Program-made: the position numbers and the translations under genes
Shown: positions 28,983 through 41,582 of the stretch, one piece after another
How positions within the stretch are numbered: the stretch's first letter is position 1
Layout of the letters: each line of letters begins with the position of its first letter
Origin: an uncultured Chlamydiae bacterium
Lineage (GTDB): Bacteria; Chlamydiota; Chlamydiia; Chlamydiales; JAJFMA01
Assembly: GCA_963713615.1 (NCBI GenBank)
Contig: CAVQMM010000001.1
Coordinates: 864,001 to 928,000, forward strand
Length of the DNA: 64,000 nt
Direction of reading: 5' to 3'
Notes under the pieces: model-generated
The model's input: only the letters and a program-made list of their open reading frames with translations
Databases searched by the model: none
Told to the model about the DNA's origin: nothing

Positions 28983-29774
28983 ATGAATCGAAGACCACCA
29001 CGCCGCGAGGCAAATACTTCCTGGGAGCCTGTCGAAGACTGGTACAAGAGCAGTGTCGGCAAAGAAGGTCACGTCTATCACCAGACAGTCGTCCTTCCTG
29101 GTATTCAACGCATCCTAAAGGCTCATGTGCCCAACTGCAAGTCTCTGCTAGACCTCGCATGCGGGCAAGGCGTCTTGGCGCGGCAGCTGCCTAAACAGAT
29201 GCGCTATACCGGGGTAGACATCTCCCCGAGCTTGATCGACTTTGCGCAAAAACATGATCAGAGCCGACAGCATCGCTACCTCGTTCATGACATCACAGAC
29301 CCCGCCTTAGATGTCGGACAAACACCATTCGACTGCGCTACCGTTGTATTAGCCCTGCAGAATGTGGAACATCCTCAAGCCGTTTTTGCCAATGCCTCCA
29401 AAGCATTGATGGATGATGGTCGTTTACTGCTGGTCCTCAACCACCCCTGTTTTCGCATTCCGCGTCAGACTTTTTGGGGTGTCGATGAACAAAAGAAATG
29501 CCGCTATCGACGGCTGGAGAGCTATCAGTCTCCGATGAAGATCCCCATCGCCATGGCCCCCTCTCAAGGCAAGGATTCTCCAGTGACCTGGTCCTTTCAT
29601 TATCCTTTATCCTCATATGCGCAGTGGCTTTGTTCCACAGGATTTGCTATAGAGACAATGGAAGAGTGGTGTTCTCCTAAAGAAAGCTACGGTAGGACCG
29701 CTAAAATGGAAAATCGTAGTCGTAAGGAATTCCCTCTCTTTCTGATGATCTTGGCGCGTAAACTGGCGAAGTAA
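28983..29774 (+). CDS. Class I SAM-dependent methyltransferase
   Basis: LLDLACGQG motif I, GVDIS, LNHPCF. Confidence 0.88.
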   Translation: MNRRPPRREANTSWEPVEDWYKSSVGKEGHVYHQTVVLPGIQRILKAHVPNCKSLLDLACGQGVLARQLPKQMRYTGVDISPSLIDFAQKHDQSRQHRYLVHDITDPALDVGQTPFDCATVVLALQNVEHPQAVFANASKALMDDGRLLLVLNHPCFRIPRQTFWGVDEQKKCRYRRLESYQSPMKIPIAMAPSQGKDSPVTWSFHYPLSSYAQWLCSTGFAIETMEEWCSPKESYGRTAKMENRSRKEFPLFLMILARKLAK

Positions 29775-31276
29775 TGTCTGGTGTCGACCCAATTGTATTA
29801 GATGGACAAAGCCTCTCCTCGGCTCAAGCAAGGGCTATTGCCGCCGGTGCGTCCGTAAAAATAGCGCCTCAGGCATCTGAAGCCGTTAAGGCAGATCGTA
29901 CGATCGTCGAAGAGATCATCCATGGTAAAAAAGCGGTTTATGGCATTAACACCGGCCTTGGCTTCTTCGCCAATAAGCGCATTGGCGCTGCTGATCTGAT
30001 AAAGCTGCAAGAAAACATCGTTCAGAGCCACGCCGCTGGCTATGGAAATCCCCTGTCCATTCCTGAAACACGCCTTGTGATGGCGCTACGTCTAAATACT
30101 TTTGTCAAAGGGTTCTCTGGTGTGCGCTTTGAGCTTTGCCAAGCCCTTCTAGACCTTATTAACGCAAATATCTATCCCCTCATTCCCGAATATGGATCGG
30201 TTGGTGCGAGTGGTGATCTCGCACCTTTGGCGCATCTAGCGCTAACTCTGACTGGCCGAGGACGCGTACGGTACAATAACGAAGAAATGACCAGTGCTGA
30301 AGCTCTCAGGCATGCCAACCTTAAGCCCTTTGTTCTAGCGGAAAAAGAGGCTCTGGGTCTGATCAATGGCACCCAGGTCATGCTTGCTGTGGGAGGCCTT
30401 GCCCTGTGCGATGCGCATGACTTATGTGACCTTGCAAACCTGGTCGCGGCCTTAACCTATGAAGGCCTTGGTGCATGTACGGATCCTCTAGATGCACGCA
30501 TCCACGAAGCTAGGGGGCAGCGAGGGCAGATAGCCTGTGCTACGCTCATTCGAAAACACCTTACGGGGTCTTATCTGTGGGGTAAGGTGGAACGACAGCG
30601 CGTTCAGGATCCCTACAGCATTCGTTGTGCGCCACAAATTCATGGTCCTAGTCGCGATGCGTTGGAATTTTGCGAAGGCATTATTGTGCGCGAACTCAAT
30701 GCGGCAACGGATAACCCTTTGGTATTCGCTGATACGCATGAAGCTCTCAGTGGAGGCAATTTCCATGGTCAGCCGTTAGCGATGGCCTTTGATTTTGCAG
30801 CTATAGCCTTGGCAGAGCTCGGTAGTGTTTCGGAGAGACGCCTAGAATTGCTTCTAAATCCACATTTAAGCGGTCTTAATGCGTTTCTGTCTGCTAATGA
30901 AGGCTTGGAATCGGGATATATGGCATCGCAATATCTGAGTGCCTCTTTGGTTAACGAGGATAAGCTCCTTGCCAACCCAGCCTGCACAGATTCCATTCCT
31001 GGAAATGTTGGCATCGAAGATCACGTTTCCATGGGAATGACATCAGCGCGTAAGCTAAGGCAGATTGTCATCAACTGCCGCGCTGTGCTTGCTGTGGAAG
31101 CCATGGCCGCAGCGGCTGCGGTGGATAGGCGCAAGGCCACTCCTTTGGGACAAGGCTCACAACAACTCTATGATGCCCTTCGAAGCCGCATTCCACCACT
31201 CGACACGGATCACATCGTTGCTGACGATGTACAGCATGCCGTCGATGCCTTGCAGAGCCTCCACCTCATCATGTGA
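29774..31276 (+). CDS. hutH: Histidine ammonia-lyase
   Basis: YGINTG, GSVGASGDL (MIO-forming ASG), QDPYSIRC, DNP, GGNFHG, EDHVSMG; other hut genes nearby. Confidence 0.95.
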   Translation: MSGVDPIVLDGQSLSSAQARAIAAGASVKIAPQASEAVKADRTIVEEIIHGKKAVYGINTGLGFFANKRIGAADLIKLQENIVQSHAAGYGNPLSIPETRLVMALRLNTFVKGFSGVRFELCQALLDLINANIYPLIPEYGSVGASGDLAPLAHLALTLTGRGRVRYNNEEMTSAEALRHANLKPFVLAEKEALGLINGTQVMLAVGGLALCDAHDLCDLANLVAALTYEGLGACTDPLDARIHEARGQRGQIACATLIRKHLTGSYLWGKVERQRVQDPYSIRCAPQIHGPSRDALEFCEGIIVRELNAATDNPLVFADTHEALSGGNFHGQPLAMAFDFAAIALAELGSVSERRLELLLNPHLSGLNAFLSANEGLESGYMASQYLSASLVNEDKLLANPACTDSIPGNVGIEDHVSMGMTSARKLRQIVINCRAVLAVEAMAAAAAVDRRKATPLGQGSQQLYDALRSRIPPLDTDHIVADDVQHAVDALQSLHLIM

Positions 31277-31285
31277 TAGGAAATA

Positions 31286-32545
31286 ATGCCTACTAACCTA
31301 GCAAAAAGTGTGTCTAAAGAATCAGAAAATTCACCTTCTTTTTCGAATGTTCGAATTGATACAGTAATTTTACTTACGCTACTATTAGCATTGCCTATCA
31401 TATCCACGGACATCTACCTGCCATCACTCAATGAAATTAGTCTCTTTTTTGGTGCAAGTCATGAAGAAATTCAATTTACGCTAACCGTATATTTTTTCAT
31501 GTTTGCTTTAGTTCAGCTCATTTATGGAGCTCTGTCAGATTACTTTGGAAGACGACCAGTTTTGTTATTCAGTCTCTTGATCTATCTGACAGCAACTATG
31601 CTCTGCATAGGTTCTAACTCTATCCAGACTCTTATTTTTGCACGTGGTCTACAAGCCCTCGGCACAGGGAGCGCAATATTGACATTTGCAATTATTCGAG
31701 ATCTCTATGAGGGTGAGCGCGTGGCAAAAATGATTGCTTATATGAGTGCTGTAGTTGCCCTATCACCAATTATTGCTCCAATCTTTGGAGGATATATCCA
31801 GCACTCATTGTCTTGGCAGTGGAATTTTATTGTGTTGTTTTTTTTCGGATCACTATTGTTCATAATGACTTACTACATGCTACCTGAAACAAATAAATAT
31901 AGAAGCGCGCAGAGTCCTCTATTTAAGCCTTTGTTATCAAGTTATCGAAAATTATTAATGGATAAAAATTATATGGGGAACGCCTTAGGCGCCGCTTTCG
32001 CGTTCGGAGCATTGTTTTCCTATATTAGCGGATCTCACTATGTATTTTTAAATCTAATGGGTTATTCACCTCAAATATTTGGATGGATATTTGCTGTAGC
32101 TGCCATTGGCTATGTTCTCGGCGCATTTGCAAGTGGCCGATTAATATCCCGCTTTGGCATGGATTCAATCTTTCGCATTGGAATTATAAGTCTTGTAAGT
32201 GGGGGAATGATCATGACGCTGTCGTGTTACTATTTCCCTCTTAATGCCTTAGCCATTGTAATGCCACAACTTGTGTGCGAATTTGGTATTTCCATTGTCG
32301 TTCCAATAGCTGTTACCAAAGCTTTGCAGCCAATACCGCAATATGCAGGTGCTGGTTCTGCATTAATCGGTTTTCTACGATTTCTGTTGGCTGCAATGGG
32401 TAGTTATTTTTCACTGCTAATTCGAAATGAGACTGCCATGCCATTGGCGGTAGTCATATTGGGATTTTCTTTATGTTCGTTAGTGGCTTCAGCATTTCCC
32501 ACATATTTGGCTGTATATCGTCTAAGACGTAATCAAAGCTGTTAA
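31286..32545 (+). CDS. Bcr/CflA-family MFS efflux transporter
   Basis: DIYLPSL, GALSDYFGRRPVL, LPET, about 12 TM segments; visibly more AT-rich than its neighbours. Confidence 0.9.
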   Translation: MPTNLAKSVSKESENSPSFSNVRIDTVILLTLLLALPIISTDIYLPSLNEISLFFGASHEEIQFTLTVYFFMFALVQLIYGALSDYFGRRPVLLFSLLIYLTATMLCIGSNSIQTLIFARGLQALGTGSAILTFAIIRDLYEGERVAKMIAYMSAVVALSPIIAPIFGGYIQHSLSWQWNFIVLFFFGSLLFIMTYYMLPETNKYRSAQSPLFKPLLSSYRKLLMDKNYMGNALGAAFAFGALFSYISGSHYVFLNLMGYSPQIFGWIFAVAAIGYVLGAFASGRLISRFGMDSIFRIGIISLVSGGMIMTLSCYYFPLNALAIVMPQLVCEFGISIVVPIAVTKALQPIPQYAGAGSALIGFLRFLLAAMGSYFSLLIRNETAMPLAVVILGFSLCSLVASAFPTYLAVYRLRRNQSC

Positions 32546-32600
32546 ACAACCTCGATGCTGAGTTTCTGTTGCTGAAGATCCTGAACATCTGGTTTTCTAT
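32539..32600 (+). pseudogene. Remnant of a second hutU copy
   Basis: Encodes LLNNLDAE-(5-nt insertion)-VAEDPEHLVFY, matching hutU 33114-33170 ([19 protein letters not shown]). Confidence 0.75.
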
Positions 32601-32663
32601 TTTGGATTGGTCCATTCCTAAGTCCATCCAAGAATAGGTCTAGTGGACGATATGGACAGTAAT

Positions 32664-32887
32664 GAGGTAATTGCAGAAGTCCGATTCTCCGAAGTCAATT
32701 TCCTGAAAATCGGATGCCGGTGAAGAGAGAGTCATTCCCTTCCCAGGCCCGAAGGGTCGATATTGCAACAGGCCATGGCATCGCCATGGTATATGCCAGG
32801 AGAGGATTTCGCAGTCTGAAAGACTGCCACAAGAGGCTGGTTTGCATAGACCATTTATGCATGCCTTTTATCGCAGTCTTTCAGACC
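32664..32887. repeat. Family B element, truncated, without the IS231-like insert
   Basis: gaggtaattgcagaagtccg...ggcccgaagggtcgatattgcaacaggccatggcatcgccatgg; a single copy of the 11-bp target at 32776-32786. Confidence 0.85.
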
Positions 32888-32945
32888 TAGCGATGCTACA
32901 TGTCTGCGTGAAACTTTCAATCACACCCCGCATCCAGCACAATGT

Positions 32946-32974
32946 TTGACAGGAGCGCTTCATACCAGTATGTT
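32946..32974 (+). promoter_or_regulatory. Putative sigma70/sigma66 promoter of hutU
   Basis: TTGACA-17 bp-TATGTT upstream of the AAGGGGG RBS and ATG 32997. Confidence 0.6.
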
Positions 32975-32996
32975 GAAATCTTTAAGGGGGTTGCTT

Positions 32997-34682
32997 ATGC
33001 CTACAATATTATCTGAATTTTTGGCTAACTACGCATCGCATCCGCATTATCGGGCGCCTCGTGGTAGCGACCTTAATGCACATTCCTGGCAGACAGAAGC
33101 CCCCCTTAGGATGCTTTTAAACAACCTAGATGCTGAGGTTGCTGAAGATCCCGAAAATCTGATCGTTTACGGCGGCACAGGGCAAGCTGCCCGCGATGTG
33201 CCCAGCTTACGTAAGATTATTGAAGCTCTCCTCAATCTGCATGACGATGAAAGTCTACTCATACAATCTGGTAAGCCGGTAGCGATCCTTCCAACCCACC
33301 ATGAGGCTCCGCGGGTATTGATCGCTAACAGCAACCTGGTCCCTCATTGGGCCACCTGGGAGCACTTCCATCAACTGCGCGAGCGTGGGCTGATCATGTT
33401 TGGTCAAATGACCGCTGGAAGCTGGATCTACATCGGCACTCAGGGTATCCTACAGGGCACCTATGAGACCTTTGGATCGTTAGCACATCGTCATTTTGAT
33501 GGTTCTCTGCGCGGACGCCTCATTGTCTCCGGCGGGCTCGGGGGTATGGGCGGAGCCCAACCTCTCGCTGCCACGCTTAACGATGCCGTATTTCTTGGGG
33601 TGGACGTCGATGCAGCCCGCATTGAGAAGCGTCTAAAAACACGCTATCTCGACCGCATGACGCATAGTTATGCGGAAGCTCTCGCCTGGATTCTCGATGC
33701 CAAGAAGGCCAAAAAGGCTCTTTCAGTAGGTCTAGTAGGAAATATTGGCACCACCTTAAATCATTTGTTGACGGACCAGGTATCTGTGGATGTGGTGACA
33801 GACCAAACCGCCGCCCATGACCCTCTAAATGGTTATGTGCCCAGTGGCTTGTCGCTTGAGAACGCTGCAACCCTGCGAAAGAATAATCCAGAAGAATATC
33901 AACGTCAGTCGTTGCAAAGTATGGCGCGCCATGTGGAAGCCATTCTCGAGTTCAAAAAGCGCGGAGCGATCGTCTTTGAGTATGGTAATAACCTACGTCA
34001 GTTTGCCAAAAAAGGAGGAGCACAGGACGCCTTCACAATTCCAGGATTCGTTCCCGAGTACATCCGACCACTTTTTTGCGAAGGCAAGGGACCTTTCCGT
34101 TGGGCGGCTTTATCGGGAGATCCTGAGGATATTTACCGCACCGACGAAGCCCTAACTAAGCTCTTTCCCTATGATGCGCGCCTGATTAATTGGCTAGAGG
34201 AAGCTGGAAAAAAAGTGGCTTTTCAGGGATTACCCGCACGTATCTGTTGGCTAGGATTAGGAGACAGAGTAAAAGCTGGCCTAGCCTTTAACGAACTCGT
34301 TCGCAGTGGAGTACTAAAAGCCCCGGTGGTCATCGGGCGCGACCACCTCGACTGCGGTTCGGTAGCTTCGCCCTTTCGAGAGACCGAGGGGATGAAGGAT
34401 GGCAGTGACGCTATCTCTGATTGGCCATTGTTGAATCTCTTGGCAAACTGTTCGGGAGGCGCCACCTGGGTGTCCTTTCATCATGGAGGAGGCGTTGGGA
34501 TGGGATATTCCCAGCATGCCGGTATGGTCATAGTGGCCGATGGCTCACAGCGCGCGGAGCACTGCCTACGACGTGTATTGCATAACGATCCCGCCTTAGG
34601 CGTCATTCGTCATGCTGATGCCGGTTATGAAGAAGCGCAAAGGGTTGCCGATGCAGCGAAACTCAAAACGTTCAATAAATAG
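32997..34682 (+). CDS. hutU: Urocanate hydratase
   Basis: [64 protein letters not shown]. Confidence 0.98.
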
Positions 34683-34777
34683 GTAAGAATTGGTTTTGGG
34701 CAGAGAAAATACGTGTTAAGTTTTCGGTAGAGTACTAGCTGACGTTCTTGCTAGACTTATAGCTAAAAGGACGTGCA

Positions 34778-35839
34778 ATGACCGAATTCCCGAAGAATAC
34801 TAAACTTTTCTATGCCGCATTGGTTCGCAAAGACCCTGCATTTGAAGGGCAATTCATTGCTGCCGTAAAAACAACGGGAATTTTCTGCCGTCCTACCTGC
34901 ACCGCACGAAAGCCAAAAATCGACAACGTAGAGTTCTTTGCTACTGCACAAGGAGCCCTAACCAATGGCTATAGGCCCTGCAAAATCTGTAAGCCCCTGG
35001 AAAGCGCTGGTGAAGTTCCAGAGGAAATCAAGAGTCTTCTGCTTGAGCTCGACATACATCCACAAGACAAAATTTCCGATTATGCTCTCTCTCAAAGAGG
35101 CATCGAGCCCAACCGAATCCGACGTTGGTTTCAACGAAATCATGGCATGACCTTTCAGGCTTATCAGAGGCTTCTAAGAATCAACGGGGCATTAAAACAA
35201 ATCAAAAGTGGAGCCAAAGTGATCGATGCTGCATTCGACTCAGGTTATGAGTCGCTGAGCGGTTTTAATCATTCATTTAAAAGGGCCACTTCCAAAAAGC
35301 CCAATGAAAGCCGAGATGCTGCTTGCTTGACCTTTCTCCGTTTTGCGACACCCATTGGGCCAATGATAACGGTTGCCACTGAGGAAGGAATCGGCCTTTT
35401 AGAGTTTACTGACCGACGTATGCTTGAGACCGAACTGAAATTTCTCGAAAAGCATTTTCAATCGACCATTCTGCCTGGCACCAACTCACATATTGAAAAA
35501 TTACAAACTCAGTTGGCTGAGTATTTTCTAGGAACACGAAAAGACTTCAATATTGCGCTGGTCACTCCAGGAACAGACTTCCAACGAAAAACCTGGATGG
35601 TTCTGCAAGACATCCCCTATGGCATGACACGTTCCTATAAAGAACAGGCGGTAGCAATTGGAAACCCCGCGGCAGTGCGGGCTGTCGCTAAAGCTAATGG
35701 AGATAATCGCATCTCTATCCTCATTCCATGCCATCGTGTGATTGGGTCAGACGGAAAGTTAACTGGCTATGGGGGTGGACTCTGGAGAAAGAAATGGCTC
35801 CTAGAACTCGAAGGCCAGAAGATGGGGCAAGGACAATGA
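34778..35839 (+). CDS. ada: Ada-type regulator / O6-methylguanine-DNA methyltransferase
   Basis: TTGIFCRPTC..RPCKIC zinc site, AraC-type HTH, IPCHRV active site. Confidence 0.95.
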   Translation: MTEFPKNTKLFYAALVRKDPAFEGQFIAAVKTTGIFCRPTCTARKPKIDNVEFFATAQGALTNGYRPCKICKPLESAGEVPEEIKSLLLELDIHPQDKISDYALSQRGIEPNRIRRWFQRNHGMTFQAYQRLLRINGALKQIKSGAKVIDAAFDSGYESLSGFNHSFKRATSKKPNESRDAACLTFLRFATPIGPMITVATEEGIGLLEFTDRRMLETELKFLEKHFQSTILPGTNSHIEKLQTQLAEYFLGTRKDFNIALVTPGTDFQRKTWMVLQDIPYGMTRSYKEQAVAIGNPAAVRAVAKANGDNRISILIPCHRVIGSDGKLTGYGGGLWRKKWLLELEGQKMGQGQ

Positions 35840-36082
35840 AAGCCCTCACAATCGTATATCGGCGCGCAGCGCTTTGGAGCCCCAAAAGTAATAAGGCCTC
35901 CTATGTGGCGCAGTCATTCCATGCATAGAGTGTTGCCTCACAATCGTTACTCGGCGCGCAGCGCTTTAGTAGGTAAGGGGCAGGGTTTCCCCAGCCCCTC
36001 CCTGTTATCGCAATAGGGTCAATTCCCTATATTTACCGGTATGCATCTTTCTCGCACCGGGCGATGCCCCACTGGTTGCCTA

Positions 36083-36894
36083 TTAGGGAACACAACCGAC
36101 ATTCATCCTCTTTCGACACAACTGAATACAACTCAGTATTCCAAGGCGGCGTAGATGCTTCAATTTCAACCGCAGGTTGTCACGCTTGCTGATACGTTTG
36201 TATTTCATGCAGCGCAAGCGTTTCCTGAGCCAACAGTCAGTGGTTACAAAGAACTTTTTGACTGCTGCTAACGGATGACTGAAGTAATTCACCGTCCCAC
36301 GCACTACTTGGTTTAGTTTCTCAACGGCCTTAGCATCTAAGTTCCGACTTCGGATCGTACAATTCCGTACTGCATCGCGCAATTTCTCCTTGGACTTTTC
36401 TCTTATGGTGATATGTCTGGAGGTAAAATGAAAACCTAGGAAGTCAAAGCCCTCTGAAGCATGACAAATCTTCGTCTTCTCGGGGCTTAACTCCAAAGAC
36501 ATCTCATCTTCCAGTATTCTCCTGGATAAGTCTAGGGCCTCCTTTGCCTGCATTTCAGTTCGACACAGAATAACAAAATCATCCGCATAGCGAACGAATT
36601 TGTAGCCATGACGTTCCAATTCGTGATCAAGGCGATTAAGAACAATATTGGCAAGCAGAGGAGAGATGACACCTCCCTGCGGCGTACCTTTTATGGTTGG
36701 CCGTAATTGTCCTTCCTCCATCACGCCAGACTTAAGAAATCGTTCGATGAGTTGTAGAATGTTACCATCAGCGATTTCGGAGGCTACTTCTGCCATCATC
36801 AGTTTGTGTGGAATGTTATCAAAGAAACCCTTGATATCGGCATCCACAACATATTTGTAACCCTGTGAAAGATATTCTTTCACCAGAGAGACAG
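36083..36894 (-). pseudogene. Group II intron reverse transcriptase/maturase, C-terminal part (no En domain)
   Basis: VVDADIKGFFDNIPH, GTPQGGVISPLLANI, VRYADDF, GFDFLGF, thumb/X domain. The preceding codons AGRNCHQA lie at about 38555-38579. Confidence 0.93.
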
Positions 36895-37214
36895 TCTTGG
36901 GTAGCCAACACGTAGCAGCCTTCCACAACTCGTAACAGCAATACCTTAAGTGACCTATGCATGACCAACATGTTGCAATTTCCAGTGCTTGATTGCCAAA
37001 CATTGTAGTCATTTGCACCAAAATTGCACCAAAAAAAAGAAAGCCCAGGAGGCCACGTCAAAAAAGATAAGGACTAGGTGTAAGAGAAAATTTAAAAGAA
37101 GCCGGATGCCATCAGGGTCGTTTTGGATACTGAAAAGATGTATACAAAAATTAGCATCACTTTTCATTGATTTTCTATCCCAACTTATCTAAAATAATGG
37201 AAAACGGAGACCTG

Positions 37215-37448
37215 ATGACATACAAGCCCATGGATCCGAAGATATTTAAAAAATACCTAAGACTATTGGGTTGGTCGATTCGCAAGTCTCGTGTTGATTG
37301 GTCTGTATACGATGAAAATGGAGACTTCGTATGTTCCATAATAATTTCTCATGGAAACACCAAGTCTGAAGTAGTTGCTCACAGCGTCCACAAGGTAAAG
37401 ACAAAAGTTATTGAAAAGGGGAAAACATGGCCGCCAACAAAGAGTTAG
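37215..37448 (+). CDS. HicA-like small basic protein (putative toxin)
   Basis: Alpha-beta-beta-beta-alpha pattern (FKKYLRLLGWSI...IIISHG...SVHKV); overlaps the downstream HicB-like gene; canonical GSH motif absent. Confidence 0.5.
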   Translation: MTYKPMDPKIFKKYLRLLGWSIRKSRVDWSVYDENGDFVCSIIISHGNTKSEVVAHSVHKVKTKVIEKGKTWPPTKS

Positions 37449-37834
37449 CCGAACACTTGGCTTTGGCCCTAGGAGAGGTTGGGGAAATACAGCCATGGTA
37501 TGATCGCAAATTCAAGGCTTGGGTATTCTCTCATAAGCTTTACCCAAACGTAGAATATGCCGGTCAATCCAAGCAGGAGGTCATCGAAAGATATCCTCTC
37601 TATTTAAAAGAATTTATTTATCATCGCCTAAACGACACTTTAAGCCCTTTATCCGAACGCGGAACCCGTGGCAAAGGGGGTTACCGAATTGGGGCCGGTC
37701 GCCCGAAAGGTTCAACGACAGAGCCCAAAAAACGAGTCTATCTTCCCGCTGAACTTGCAGACTGGATTTCTGAGTATTCTCACTTGGAGATGGTTCGTAA
37801 AATGATGCTTAAAGATAAATCCAAAGCATCTTGA
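37427..37834 (+). CDS. HicB-like protein with GGxRxGAGRPKG motif and RHH-like tail (putative antitoxin)
   Basis: WVF...YPNVEYAGQSKQEVIE HicB-like core; GAGRPKG; KRVYLPAELADWI. Confidence 0.55.
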   Translation: MAANKELAEHLALALGEVGEIQPWYDRKFKAWVFSHKLYPNVEYAGQSKQEVIERYPLYLKEFIYHRLNDTLSPLSERGTRGKGGYRIGAGRPKGSTTEPKKRVYLPAELADWISEYSHLEMVRKMMLKDKSKAS

Positions 37835-37904
37835 TGAATACCGCCAAAATTATCGCCTGTAAGCCTCAGCCAGGGTATAAGGTGTGGATTCGCTTTGATG
37901 ATGG

Positions 37905-38105
37905 TTAGGCTAGACAATAGATAACGTCGGTGTCCCTTGGGTGTACGCTCAACCTGGATTTTGCCAGCAGCCTCCCAACGACGGAGTGTAGCCTCGTGTA
38001 CGCCAAGTTCCTGAGCTGCTTTCTTGATACTCACCTTCATGCGCTAAAATCTATGCAATTTGCATAGAGTTGTCAAGAAATATATAGATTTTTGGCAGCT
38101 GCTGC
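37905..38105 (-). pseudogene. IS607-family left end and truncated TnpA (MerR-like HTH only)
   Basis: MKVSIKKAAQELGVHEATLRRWEAAGKIQVERTPKGHRRY; TTGACA-17-TAGATT upstream; resolvase domain missing. Boundaries approximate. Confidence 0.7.
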
Positions 38106-38106
38106 C

Positions 38107-38160
38107 AACCCTATAATTGACGCTACCGTCCTTCCGTTGCCTTGCTTCTATGATAGCCAT
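38107..38160 (-). pseudogene. N-terminal remnant of a tyrosine integrase
   Basis: GGAGG RBS then MAIIEARQRKDGSVNYRV, resembling the start of an integrase arm-binding domain; cut by the IS607 end. Confidence 0.5.
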
Positions 38161-38506
38161 GTTGTTGGTCCTCCAATTTGTGTTGAGCCTGTCAGCAGTC
38201 CGCGAAAGCCTACCATCACAGGCAAAAAAATACCACATCAGATTAGCATTCTGATGTGGCTTAGTTCGTAAAAGTCGTTTGTATCGACACTTAGATGTAA
38301 TTCGTTGGGTGGATAAACCCGATTTGGTGCACTTTTGGTGCAGTACAGAAAACAATTGGCACTTTTGAGGATCGATCAAGTGTTGTCTTGTGTTGGGAGC
38401 AAGTGCACCAAAATTGCACCATTTTCGGGACAGCACAAAGTGCAGTCCGATGGGACGTGTCAGGCGATAGGCTTGTGGATGTAGTGTCAGAGGGAAAGGG
38501 AAAGAG

Positions 38507-38557
38507 TGGGGGTGGTTGGAGTCGAACCAACGTAGACCGAAGTCGTCAGATTTACAG
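38507..38557 (-). tRNA. tRNA-Tyr(GTA) 3' fragment (att site, not a full tRNA)
   Basis: CTGTAAATCTGACGACTTCGGTCTACGTTGGTTCGACTCCAACCACCCCCA: anticodon loop, long variable arm, T arm and acceptor 3' strand. Confidence 0.88.
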
Positions 38558-39373
38558 CCTGATGACAGTTTCTGCCAGCGCCCCTATAGCACATGCTGTC
38601 TATTTGCTACGGGAAAGTCTTGCGACTCCAGCGCTTCGGCTCACTCCAGTGCTTGGCGCGCTAACGTCGGCTGAAACGTGACCCCCCCCATGGTAACGCT
38701 ACCTGACACCTTAACAGCCACACTTACGCATGGTCCTGTCTGCCTCCTCTTTCGAGGCTGGTAACGTCTTCTGCACGGGAAACAGTCCCGCACAGGTAGG
38801 CTTTGGTTGTATTTTACTGCATAAATTACTACCTCATCCGTTTGTGACTTAGTTCTAACATACCCGCGACTCGCGCGGAGTGCGGTCGCTTGCGACCGCT
38901 TTTCGTTCCTTGCGATGGTCATGTGAAACGGCATCACTATCATTCGCTAAGGGTAAAGGGTTAGTACATGCAGCCTAACCGAATCCATACGATGCCGTTT
39001 AGCACTGCCGTCGCAAGGAACCCAAAGCGGTCGCAAGCGACCGCACTCCAAAGCGCTGCGCGCCGAGATACGATTGTGAGTCAAGAAAAAGATGTGTGCA
39101 ACACTATGCATGGAATGACTGCGCCACATAGGAAATTGCGCCAGCCAACCTTTTGAATTACTTGGAAGAGCGTGTCGCTCGCGACCGCTTTGGATTTGGG
39201 TGGCTAGATATTTTACGATCTTGGCTTTATACCGCTCGCTATAGCATTTTATACCATAATCGGCCTAAAACATCGACTGTGGTATACAACAGATTCGCCC
39301 AAATCCAAAGCGCTGCGCGCCGAGCAACGATTGTGAGGGCCTGAATGACCATCGAAACTAAACAGTAAATACT

Positions 39374-40621
39374 ATGCCACCGTTTTCCTCAAAAGGCCAA
39401 AGTCCCACGAAAGTGCTAGGCCCCTTCGCGCAGGTTGTTACCATGGAGGCTTCGCCTTCCAATGGACCGATAAAAGACTCACAACTTCACATCTTCGAAA
39501 ATGTGGGCATCAGCATTTCTGATGGCAAAATACAGGCCATTGCTCCGCTTTCGGATCTATCAGGGCCTCTGGAGGAAATCCCCCAACCTGCTGTGGCACT
39601 GCCGGGTTTTATCGATGCCCATACACACCTCTGCTTTGCGGGATCGCGCTGTCACGACTATGCCATGCGTCTTAACGGTATCGGCTATGAAGAGATTGCA
39701 GCATCGGGCGGAGGAATCCTAGACACTGTTCGCCAAACACGCAATGCTTCTCTAGAAGAACTCACGGCACTGACCAGCGCCCGACTACTACAAGTGGCTG
39801 GTCATGGAGTAACCACCTGCGAGGTCAAAAGCGGGTATGGTCTTTCACTTGAATCAGAGCTCAAAATTCTGAGGTCTATCGCTAAAGCCTCTAAGGAACA
39901 ATGTGTCTCTGTGATTCCGACTTGTTTAGCAGCTCACACTCTACCTCCCGAATTCAACAGTACAACAACCTATCTAAATTATATTCTGGAGCATATCCTC
40001 CCTATCATCCAGGCTGAAGGACTAGCCCAGCGTGTCGACATCTTTGTCGACGACAGTGCCTTTGGTGTTGCGGAAGCAATCGAATACCTCAAAAAAGCCA
40101 AGCACATAGGCTTTGCCGTCTGTGTTCATGCGGATCAGTTTTCCCGCGGCGGCGTTCAAGTAGCTACGGCGGTCAACGCCTTGAGCGCCGACCATCTCGA
40201 GCAATCAAAATCCGCTGACTTCACTGCAATGCAAAAAGCTGGGGTTATCCCTATAGTGCTACCAGGAGCCTCTCTGGGTCTTGGTATGCCGTTTCCACCG
40301 GCGCGTGCGATCCTAGATCATCACTTACCCCTAGTTATCGCTTCAGACTGGAATCCTGGTTCAGGGCCCATGGGAGATCTGCTGACGCAAGCGGCTCTGC
40401 TAGGTGCGGCTCAGTGCCTCACAATGGCTGAAACGTTGGCAGCCATAACCGTACGTGCCGCTAGAGCTTTGGCACTGACAGACCGAGGAGCTTTAGTTTC
40501 TGGTTTGCGTGCCGATCTGGCGCTGTTCCCCTGTTCCGACTACCGTGAAATCCTCTACCACCAAGGTAGCCTAAAACCTTTTGCCACCTACATCCATGGG
40601 AGTCGCACCGATGGCTTTTGA
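39374..40621 (+). CDS. hutI: Imidazolonepropionase
   Basis: PGFIDAHTH, GGGI..TV, EVKSGYGL, HADQ, SADHLE, SDWNPGS. Confidence 0.96.
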   Translation: MPPFSSKGQSPTKVLGPFAQVVTMEASPSNGPIKDSQLHIFENVGISISDGKIQAIAPLSDLSGPLEEIPQPAVALPGFIDAHTHLCFAGSRCHDYAMRLNGIGYEEIAASGGGILDTVRQTRNASLEELTALTSARLLQVAGHGVTTCEVKSGYGLSLESELKILRSIAKASKEQCVSVIPTCLAAHTLPPEFNSTTTYLNYILEHILPIIQAEGLAQRVDIFVDDSAFGVAEAIEYLKKAKHIGFAVCVHADQFSRGGVQVATAVNALSADHLEQSKSADFTAMQKAGVIPIVLPGASLGLGMPFPPARAILDHHLPLVIASDWNPGSGPMGDLLTQAALLGAAQCLTMAETLAAITVRAARALALTDRGALVSGLRADLALFPCSDYREILYHQGSLKPFATYIHGSRTDGF

Positions 40622-41582
40622 GCGATCCGATTGGCACGAACGTTATCACACGACCTCTCCAAATGTCTGGCATGGACGAAAGGATGGTCCCGGCGCTCCG
40701 CGCTTCCATGAGGTCGTGCAGGTCCTCAACCTGAATAATGGTCTTTCATCTCTACAAAAAGGCATTGCCCTCATCGGCTTTGCTTGTGACGAAGGAATCA
40801 AAAGAAATCAAGGTCGCGTAGGAGCAGCTAAAGGCCCCGAAGCCCTGAGAGAAGCTCTGGGCAAGCTTGCGTTTCATGGGAACGCGCCTGTCTATGACCT
40901 CGGGGATGTAGTCTGTACCGATGGCCATCTAGAAGCCTCTCAGATCGCCCTTGCTGCTATAGTAGCAAAAACCTGGGACGCTGGATTGATGCCGATCGTT
41001 CTTGGAGGGGGTCATGAAGTCGCTTGGGGACACTACCAAGGGCTTGCGTCTGCTTACCCCTCCCAACGCATGGGCATTATTAACATCGATGCACACTATG
41101 ATCTAAGACCCTGTTTAGCAGGGCAAGGGTCATCAGGCACCTCTTTCACACAAATTGCCCAACATCGTCAGGCACTGGGATTACCATTCGAGTACGCGTG
41201 CATTGGCATTCAGCCCTTGGGAAACACTCAAGCCCTTTTTGAAACAGCCCTCCAATTGGGCGTTGAGACAGTGACAGCATCAGACATTTATCAGCAAGGT
41301 ATTGGACAAGCCTTAGCAACTGTCGACTACCTCATTAGTAAGTGCGAGGTCATTTACCTAACCTTGTGCATGGATGTTTTTGGATCTGCGTTCGCCCCAG
41401 GGGTAAGCGCTCCGCAACCGCTAGGAATGATGCCTTGGCAAGTACAAGCGATCGTCGCTCACGTTCGTACCAGCGGCAAACTCATAGGGTTCGATGTGGC
41501 AGAGTTATCGCCACCGTTCGACCGCGACTCTCATACGGCGATGTTAGCAGCGGCTATGGTTGCTACCATCACGCTCGTGTAA
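40611..41582 (+). CDS. hutG: Formimidoylglutamase (arginase family)
   Basis: GFACDEG..RNQGR.GA, GGGHE, NIDAHYDLR, SSGT, APGVSAP, AELSP; overlaps the hutI stop. Confidence 0.93.
   Translation: MAFERSDWHERYHTTSPNVWHGRKDGPGAPRFHEVVQVLNLNNGLSSLQKGIALIGFACDEGIKRNQGRVGAAKGPEALREALGKLAFHGNAPVYDLGDVVCTDGHLEASQIALAAIVAKTWDAGLMPIVLGGGHEVAWGHYQGLASAYPSQRMGIINIDAHYDLRPCLAGQGSSGTSFTQIAQHRQALGLPFEYACIGIQPLGNTQALFETALQLGVETVTASDIYQQGIGQALATVDYLISKCEVIYLTLCMDVFGSAFAPGVSAPQPLGMMPWQVQAIVAHVRTSGKLIGFDVAELSPPFDRDSHTAMLAAAMVATITLV

Follow-up and report, generated by a model that had tools for sequence, protein, structure and literature searches.

As summarized in Table 1, the 64,000-nt stretch of DNA from an uncultured Chlamydiae bacterium that was analysed here (the window; its genome is referred to as G000) carries on its minus strand the separated parts of a group II intron, namely a 5' segment of domain I (DI), the 3' part of a reverse transcriptase (RT)/maturase ORF, domain V (DV) and domain VI (DVI), together with a foreign island lying within the ORF. 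The intron interrupts a REP-like palindromic repeat, and both of its ends, which the initial annotation had placed at a GCGCG start and a CU terminus, were fixed by 220 exact empty sites of this target repeat in G000 and by a second filled site (C1:2449379-2449645) having the identical two junctions, both exact. The remnant at the latter site consisted of 30 nt of the intron 5' end, approximately 60 nt of another multicopy repeat, 47 nt of unique sequence and 131 nt of the 3' end, and showed one difference from the window copy.

Table 1. Positions in the window of the intron parts, the flanking exons and the island.
Feature	Position	Strand	Remark
5' exon, hairpin of REP-like palindromic repeat	38877..38899	-	ends at the insertion site
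5' intron part, 298 nt (domain I up to the alpha-prime hairpin)	38579..38876	-	GCGCG at 38876
EBS1	38642..38647	-	can pair with the terminal 6 nt of the 5' exon
Stranded RT codons 103-110	38554..38578	-	fused to domain I by deletion
Foreign island, 1663 nt, within RT ORF	36891..38553	-	entry site resembles a tRNA-Tyr anticodon arm
RT/maturase ORF, 3' part	36083..36890	-	about residues 111-378 of P0001; YADD, RVT_1 and GIIM
Domain V, 59 nt	36007..36065	-	insert in the 3' strand
CGC catalytic triad	36063-36061	-	two-base bulge 5 bp above the triad
DV insert, 24 nt	36012..36035	-	predicted three-way junction
Domain VI	35968..36003	-	bulged A at 35974 (-7); intron end CU at 35968
3' exon, rest of the same REP-like repeat	35937..35967	-

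The 5' 298 nt of the window intron matched domain I of its closest relative and were followed by RT codons 103-110, the ORF resuming at around residue 111. The copy is without the end of DI, DII, DIII, J2/3 and the RT N-terminus (to about codon 102); of the intron structure, only a portion of DI remains, together with the end of DIV, DV and DVI, and the copy is dead. The initial annotation, which had argued against decay, is supported for DV but made no mention of the decay of the same copy elsewhere. The protein P0001, an intact RT/maturase of 378 aa, is 99% identical to the window RT, and contigs of the run X1, which may share its source with the window, continue without the deletion or the island, indicating that intact versions of the window intron exist. 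No RNA dataset appeared among the sequencing runs listed as carrying the sequence. The island, of tRNA-Tyr type, entered the RT gene at a stretch that resembles the tRNA-Tyr anticodon arm by chance. It starts with the 3' half of a tRNA-Tyr, and its arms and small ORFs are common to the DNA beside the native tRNA-Tyr (C1:18966 onward). It also contains a 208-bp multicopy repeat (approximately 37905-38114) that overlaps a MerR-type HTH ORF and has seven 100%-identical copies elsewhere in G000.

When a slightly shorter motif was used, 341 empty sites were counted on C1, 12 of them inside ORFs of at least 150 aa, against a genome coverage of 78%. One of the six Y1-transposase genes (L302, C1:3256780-3256998; a weak Y1-transposase match in a 197-aa frame) is accompanied by three copies of the target repeat on each side, an arrangement of Y1 gene and flanking palindromes that we take to be of the REP/RAYT type, and it is likely the source gene of this family of over 340 extragenic repeats. 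Palindromes of other families flank two further Y1 genes. The repeat/intron/island block breaks up a set of histidine-utilisation-like genes at 29774-41582 of the window, which by sequence resemblance encode an ammonia-lyase, a urocanate hydratase, an imidazolonepropionase and a formimidoylglutamase, and in which an MFS transporter and an Ada-type repair gene were also recognized with Pfam.

The catalytic centre of group II introns is domain V, usually one uninterrupted stem-loop with a G-U pair at the triad; in the spliceosome it is generally equated with the U6 stem-loop and U2/U6 helix Ib taken together. On the minus strand from 36065 to 35968, the initially annotated DV with its 10-bp helix, CGC triad and paired 24-nt insert was confirmed, as was the bulged A of DVI at -7 (35974). 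The ten pairs of the basal helix (36065-36007) were all Watson-Crick, and DV was laid out as 2 bp plus the CGC triad helix, a 5-bp stem, a 2-nt bulge (36042-36041) and a short distal stem-loop. The insert, made up of a 5-nt linker, a 6-bp stem (36030-36025 with 36018-36013), a 6-nt loop and a 1-nt linker, interrupts the DV 3' strand precisely where the triad helix meets the 5-bp stem. Its hairpin was present in 8/8 of the near-optimal DV folds listed, none of which offered an alternative canonical DV, and was also recovered by RNAalifold on 70 homologs. A search with Rfam gave no group II intron in the window at gathering score, nor around the locus at E-values up to 5.

In order to assess the insert among relatives, a set of 181 homologous loci was assembled, for which two collection scans covered 12/64 and 4/64 of their collections; in 97 of these loci, the window included as one, the RT was at least 47% identical to P0001. 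With the DV type assigned by an nhmmer profile, DV was assembled in place in 80 of the 97, and the insert was found in all 80. Fifteen others end before or inside DV, and in another, L050, the position of the insert is occupied by a longer one. The last one, L044, was considered as an exception to the rule and rejected, as it is a twintron, its ORF being followed directly by a second, nested group II intron. No close homolog had a normal DV. A parser for canonical DVs likewise came up empty in 78 of 79 clade loci; its match in L127 was a spurious one upstream of the insert-bearing DV. Immediately behind the RT ORF, the sister loci L050 and L052 carry a longer, A/U-rich hairpin at the corresponding place in DV, and L052 has an apparent AAC triad. 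Rfam models (including RF00029) missed 15/15 clade or sister loci tested and matched 5/5 outgroup loci.

The covariation among homologs that the initial annotation had proposed to look for was clearly evident. Over 70 distinct DVs, the insert helix was paired in 420/420 cells; five of its six pairs exhibited compensatory changes, and 73 cells were altered on both sides. The covariation score was 0.568 as compared with 0.212±0.016 after shuffling, with 0/500 shuffles reaching 0.568 and slid controls at 0.25 or below. Although such shuffle tests are inflated by the relatedness among the sequences, 14 further pair types without any mismatch would be hard to get otherwise. The insert was 24 nt long in 69/70 distinct DVs, in which six of its bases (A33, U35, G41, A42, A43 and C48) were invariant, and both the insert and these bases were kept among RTs only 50-64% identical to P0001. 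Furthermore, the central G of the triad was paired with C in 70/70 lineage DVs and not in the usual G-U pair, which was observed in all 67 parsed outgroup loci (of 83; 16 unparsed) and in 11/12 reference introns, the twelfth having G-A. The triad itself was CGC in 69/70, the sole AGC member, L047 (DV at 2671-2727), having a compensated A-U pair and a J2/3 that is still AGC. Mutual information among lineage members gave no long-range RNA partner (kissing loop) of the insert.

The RT/maturase contains no endonuclease domain, which classes B, ML and CL normally carry, and its YADD motif was retained in 65/65 clade ORFs checked. In a 48-row maximum-likelihood tree (LG+G4, drawn with midpoint rooting), with which FastTree agreed, the 14 insert-bearing RT rows formed one clade (100/98), which was joined by three sister rows (99/97), two of them with a different insert. 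Eleven class-labelled references (A, C, D, E, g1 twice, g2, g3/F, g6, CL1A and one Unclassified), all with uninterrupted DV, fell outside this clade; their labels were taken from PMC3552965 Table S2 and PMC8919778 Table 3. Of the RT classes against which the initial annotation had suggested placing the protein, A, C, D, E, F, g1, g2, g3, g6 and CL1A are represented by one or two labelled references each, none of them within the clade, and B, ML, CL2, g4 and g5 are without labelled rows in this tree. The individual U1-U3 groups likewise lack labelled rows; they are defined in PMC8919778 only among introns having an Rfam DV match. The insert clade shares a node (96/95) with C, g6 and unlabelled lineages, and the C+g6 clade (100/97; one labelled C reference plus C-like loci) excludes it. 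The nearest solved proteins were the class C maturases GsI-IIC RT (6ar1) and 7uim. G000 itself also contains ordinary class C-type intron fragments at C1:2938370-2939690 and 2881660-2882125, the first with a canonical CGC domain V.

The remaining parts of the ribozyme were examined in 52 full-length members (1961-2152 nt), in which mutual information recovered the stems of DI to DVI, i.e. the six-domain fold, together with the alpha-alpha' kissing pair. A long-range DI pair was Watson-Crick in 52/52 and J2/3 was AGC in 51/52; since the last intron base is U, the A of J2/3 can pair with it (γ–γ′). The 5' ends of 68 loci, counted after the doubtful L044, L045 and L142 were dropped and seven rows were added by eye, read GCGUG (41), GUGUG (17), GCGCG (6), GUGCG (3) and GGGUG (1), whereas 75 of 76 3' ends were complete and all 75 were CU. 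Of the non-canonical ends initially described, the 3' CU is therefore fixed lineage-wide, but the 5' end is only partly non-canonical, with GUGYG in 20/68 and C at position 2 in 47/68; as a whole, the lineage does not follow the GUGYG...AY termini of group II introns. The EBS1-IBS1 pairing extended over a mean of 6.6 nt, against 3.3±0.18 when shuffled (47 loci), and EBS3 was Watson-Crick with exon +1 in 78%. A splice site shifted by +1 scored higher in the EBS1 count (7.6), owing to a possible pair between the first G and the base that precedes EBS1, and the 5' boundary thus rests on the empty sites. The predicted EBS1, EBS3 and γ–γ′ pairings support the GYGYG…CU ends. The lineage accordingly has the six domains, the triad 5 bp from a 2-nt bulge, J2/3, the bulged DVI A and the EBS and gamma pairings by which a group II intron is recognized, but not the uninterrupted DV with a G-U triad, the insert being present in 80/80 and the G-C pair in 70/70.

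Several genomes were found to harbour the lineage in multiple copies, with insert-motif counts of 19 in G305, 14 in G302, 17 in G304, 7 in G303 and 4 in G301 (one or two chance matches per genome excluded), as compared with 0-1 in controls. Full-length copies with exact ends at separate sites accounted for 15 of the 18 fetched from G305, 12/13 from G302 and 7/7 from G303. The seven G303 copies were 99.8-100% alike with intact ORFs; shortened ORFs occurred in 6/15 and 2/12 of the full-length copies in G305 and G302, respectively. On contigs C48 and C57 of G304, insert-type DVs occur in pairs 2086 nt apart, which suggests tandem intron copies. As retrohoming requires reverse splicing by DV (PMC9294222), the near-identical copies at many sites indicated that the branched DV is likely catalytic; it would then catalyse retrohoming, and the lineage probably still splices. 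The initial view of a structurally distinct lineage and not a decayed one was thereby borne out by an insert that is constant and covarying, by monophyletic RTs and by multiple copies with precise ends.

The insertion sites in these multicopy genomes follow hairpin repeats, and insertion after a hairpin was clear in G000, G302, G303 and G305. Only 29% of 42 5' exons folded at z<-2 (7% of 28 controls), and hairpin targeting is thus not universal; the post-hairpin sites may reflect either hairpin recognition or homing into abundant repeats. Judged by record titles, on which the distribution outside the host phylum rests, the lineage spans Chlamydiota, Planctomycetota, Verrucomicrobiota/Lentisphaerota, Nitrospinota, Nitrospirota, Gemmatimonadota and Pseudomonadota, and the core-clade records from the collection scan were all metagenome-assembled. 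A motif tally of 91/401 was mostly due to chance, as a reversed-pattern control matched at a similar rate; among the motif matches listed, about 11 genomes were judged by eye to be real. Plasmid records gave nothing above 44% identity among the best 40 rows listed and nothing reaching 60% among the 5000 records retained, and viral contigs gave no exact motif match.

Among known systems, class C (IIC) introns share with the lineage the CGC triad, the AGC J2/3, a small protein lacking the endonuclease domain and, for part of its sites, insertion after hairpins. They differ in that the insert lineage stands outside the C+g6 clade, possesses the DV insert, the G-C triad pair and the CU end, is missed by the Rfam models that match class C loci, and has an EBS1 of about 6 nt, whereas the IIC EBS1 pairs about 4 nt. 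The classes A, D, E, F (g2, g3), g1, g6, Unclassified and CL1A, with one or two references each, have in common with it the six domains, EBS1/EBS3, the branch A at -7 and an RT-maturase ORF in DIV; in contrast, their DV is uninterrupted, and the labelled references, class C included, are only 32-41% identical to P0001. Class B introns likewise possess a conserved additional stem-loop, domain VII, towards their 3' end, but it sits, as described in PMC9294222 and PMC4424553, between DVI and the 3' splice site and not within DV. The G2L3-5 RTs are of the group II type with a DV missed by standard searches, according to the accounts in PMC2602772 and PMC4244168; identity with G2L3 or G2L5 was rejected, since the lineage has YADD in 65/65, and not YVDD (G2L3) or DN (G2L5), and, unlike the G2L RTs, is associated with an intron RNA, a complete ribozyme with mobility. 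No description of the lineage was found in the literature covered, mainly open papers, and it is apparently undescribed so far; the Toro 2019 set or the Wu 2018 thesis may hold these RTs. Since the pipeline of PMC8919778 demands an Rfam DV match, the insert clade was likely missed there.

All these observations make it quite likely that the locus represents a mobile, endonuclease-less group II lineage with a conserved 24-nt DV hairpin, which would splice and retrohome with the predicted three-way junction and of which the window copy is a broken member. As the DV 5' strand is continuous, the triad helix would stack on the distal stem, and the triad would keep the two-metal active site together with the J2/3 AGC and the bulge at a distance of 5 bp. 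The insert would project sideways from the 3' side, with its invariant linker and loop bases docking on RNA or on the maturase as a fixed contact, and the G-C triad pair would stiffen the junction. The lariat would then reverse-splice into short repeats by means of the roughly 6-bp EBS1 and EBS3, often just after a hairpin. One member does not fit this explanation, namely L047 with its assigned AGC triad and unchanged J2/3 AGC.

That the insert is a private mutation or a decay product of the copy in the window genome might be thought of in view of the decay of that copy elsewhere; however, the insert recurs in 79 other loci with compensatory changes and in mobile, intact copies, and this reading of DV was rejected with hardly any residual probability, the insert being lineage-wide and covarying. 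It is somewhat less improbable, yet still improbable, that the insert is a tolerated passenger that folds away and has no function of its own. The failure to find a covarying partner agrees with such a passenger, as does the longer insert of different sequence in the sister rows L050 and L052; the length fixed in 69/70, the six bases invariant among RTs of only 50-64% identity to P0001 and the fact that no clade member has lost the insert argue against it. We consider that the insert is a conserved and probably functional remodelling of the group II active-site domain.

The contact made by the insert bears on another reading, in which the branched DV would be active only when its maturase, bound to the insert, clamps the junction in the way that proteins act on U2/U6. 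The invariant unpaired bases that have no RNA partner and the YADD kept in 65/65 clade ORFs would suit such a dependence, and the U2/U6 core interactions are stated to need protein (PMC6294511). On the other hand, the other ribozyme contacts are all kept and covarying, and a stabilising effect on the junction is expected of the G-C triad pair. A strict maturase dependence thus seems rather unlikely, and it is partly compatible with the explanation preferred above.

The position of the junction was further compared with the spliceosomal active site. There U2 is the pairing partner of the triad (helix Ib), the bulge of the U6 ISL is 5 bp away from the triad, and helix II is the third arm, with U6 84-90 and U2 14-19 single-stranded (PMC5688998); U6-G60 pairs with U2-C22 (PMC6294511), and the break into helix Ib and the ISL is called a perplexing difference from group II introns (PMC4424553). 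At the level of secondary structure, the lineage and U2/U6 both have, on the 3' side, an additional helix that parts the triad helix from the bulged stem-loop, and in both the triad lies 5 bp from the bulge with its central G paired with C. They differ in that the lineage is one RNA in cis, has CGC and not AGC, is without an equivalent of helix Ia, and has linkers of 5 and 1 nt as compared with about 7 and 6 nt in yeast U2/U6.

These likenesses could be read as descent, with the lineage derived from an intron type ancestral to U2/U6 and with helix II and the insert as homologs; the same break register and the Watson-Crick pair at the triad centre could be cited for this, as could the description of the break as perplexing (PMC4424553). 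This reading is, however, highly improbable, given that the lineage combines a CGC triad with an AGC J2/3, rather than AGC and GA, that the linker lengths differ, and that the relatives around the lineage have an ordinary DV, so that the insertion looks derived. The different linkers, the CGC triad and the ordinary-DV neighbours favour convergence, and a junction at the register of U2/U6 helix II probably arose independently. A bolder proposal is that the lineage constitutes a structurally new class of group II ribozyme, its active site having the U2/U6 three-helix architecture in three dimensions, which, once opened at the insert and DVI loops, would give working U6-like and U2-like RNAs in trans; we put this forward tentatively, as an outcome less expected than its opposite.

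The immediate consequence is that Rfam-based surveys are blind to this lineage, as seen in the 15/15 loci missed, and that catalogues so built are without this clade, whose copy number amounts to 14-19 in each of three genomes examined. The EBS1 of about 6 bp follows different repeats from host to host, which is suggestive of natural retargeting. With respect to the spliceosome, a mobile lineage bearing a helix at the same register indicates that a group II core can accommodate the break, and the fragmentation model becomes testable within a single ribozyme. If the three-helix proposal is true, the lineage would be a living model of domain V splitting into two snRNAs.
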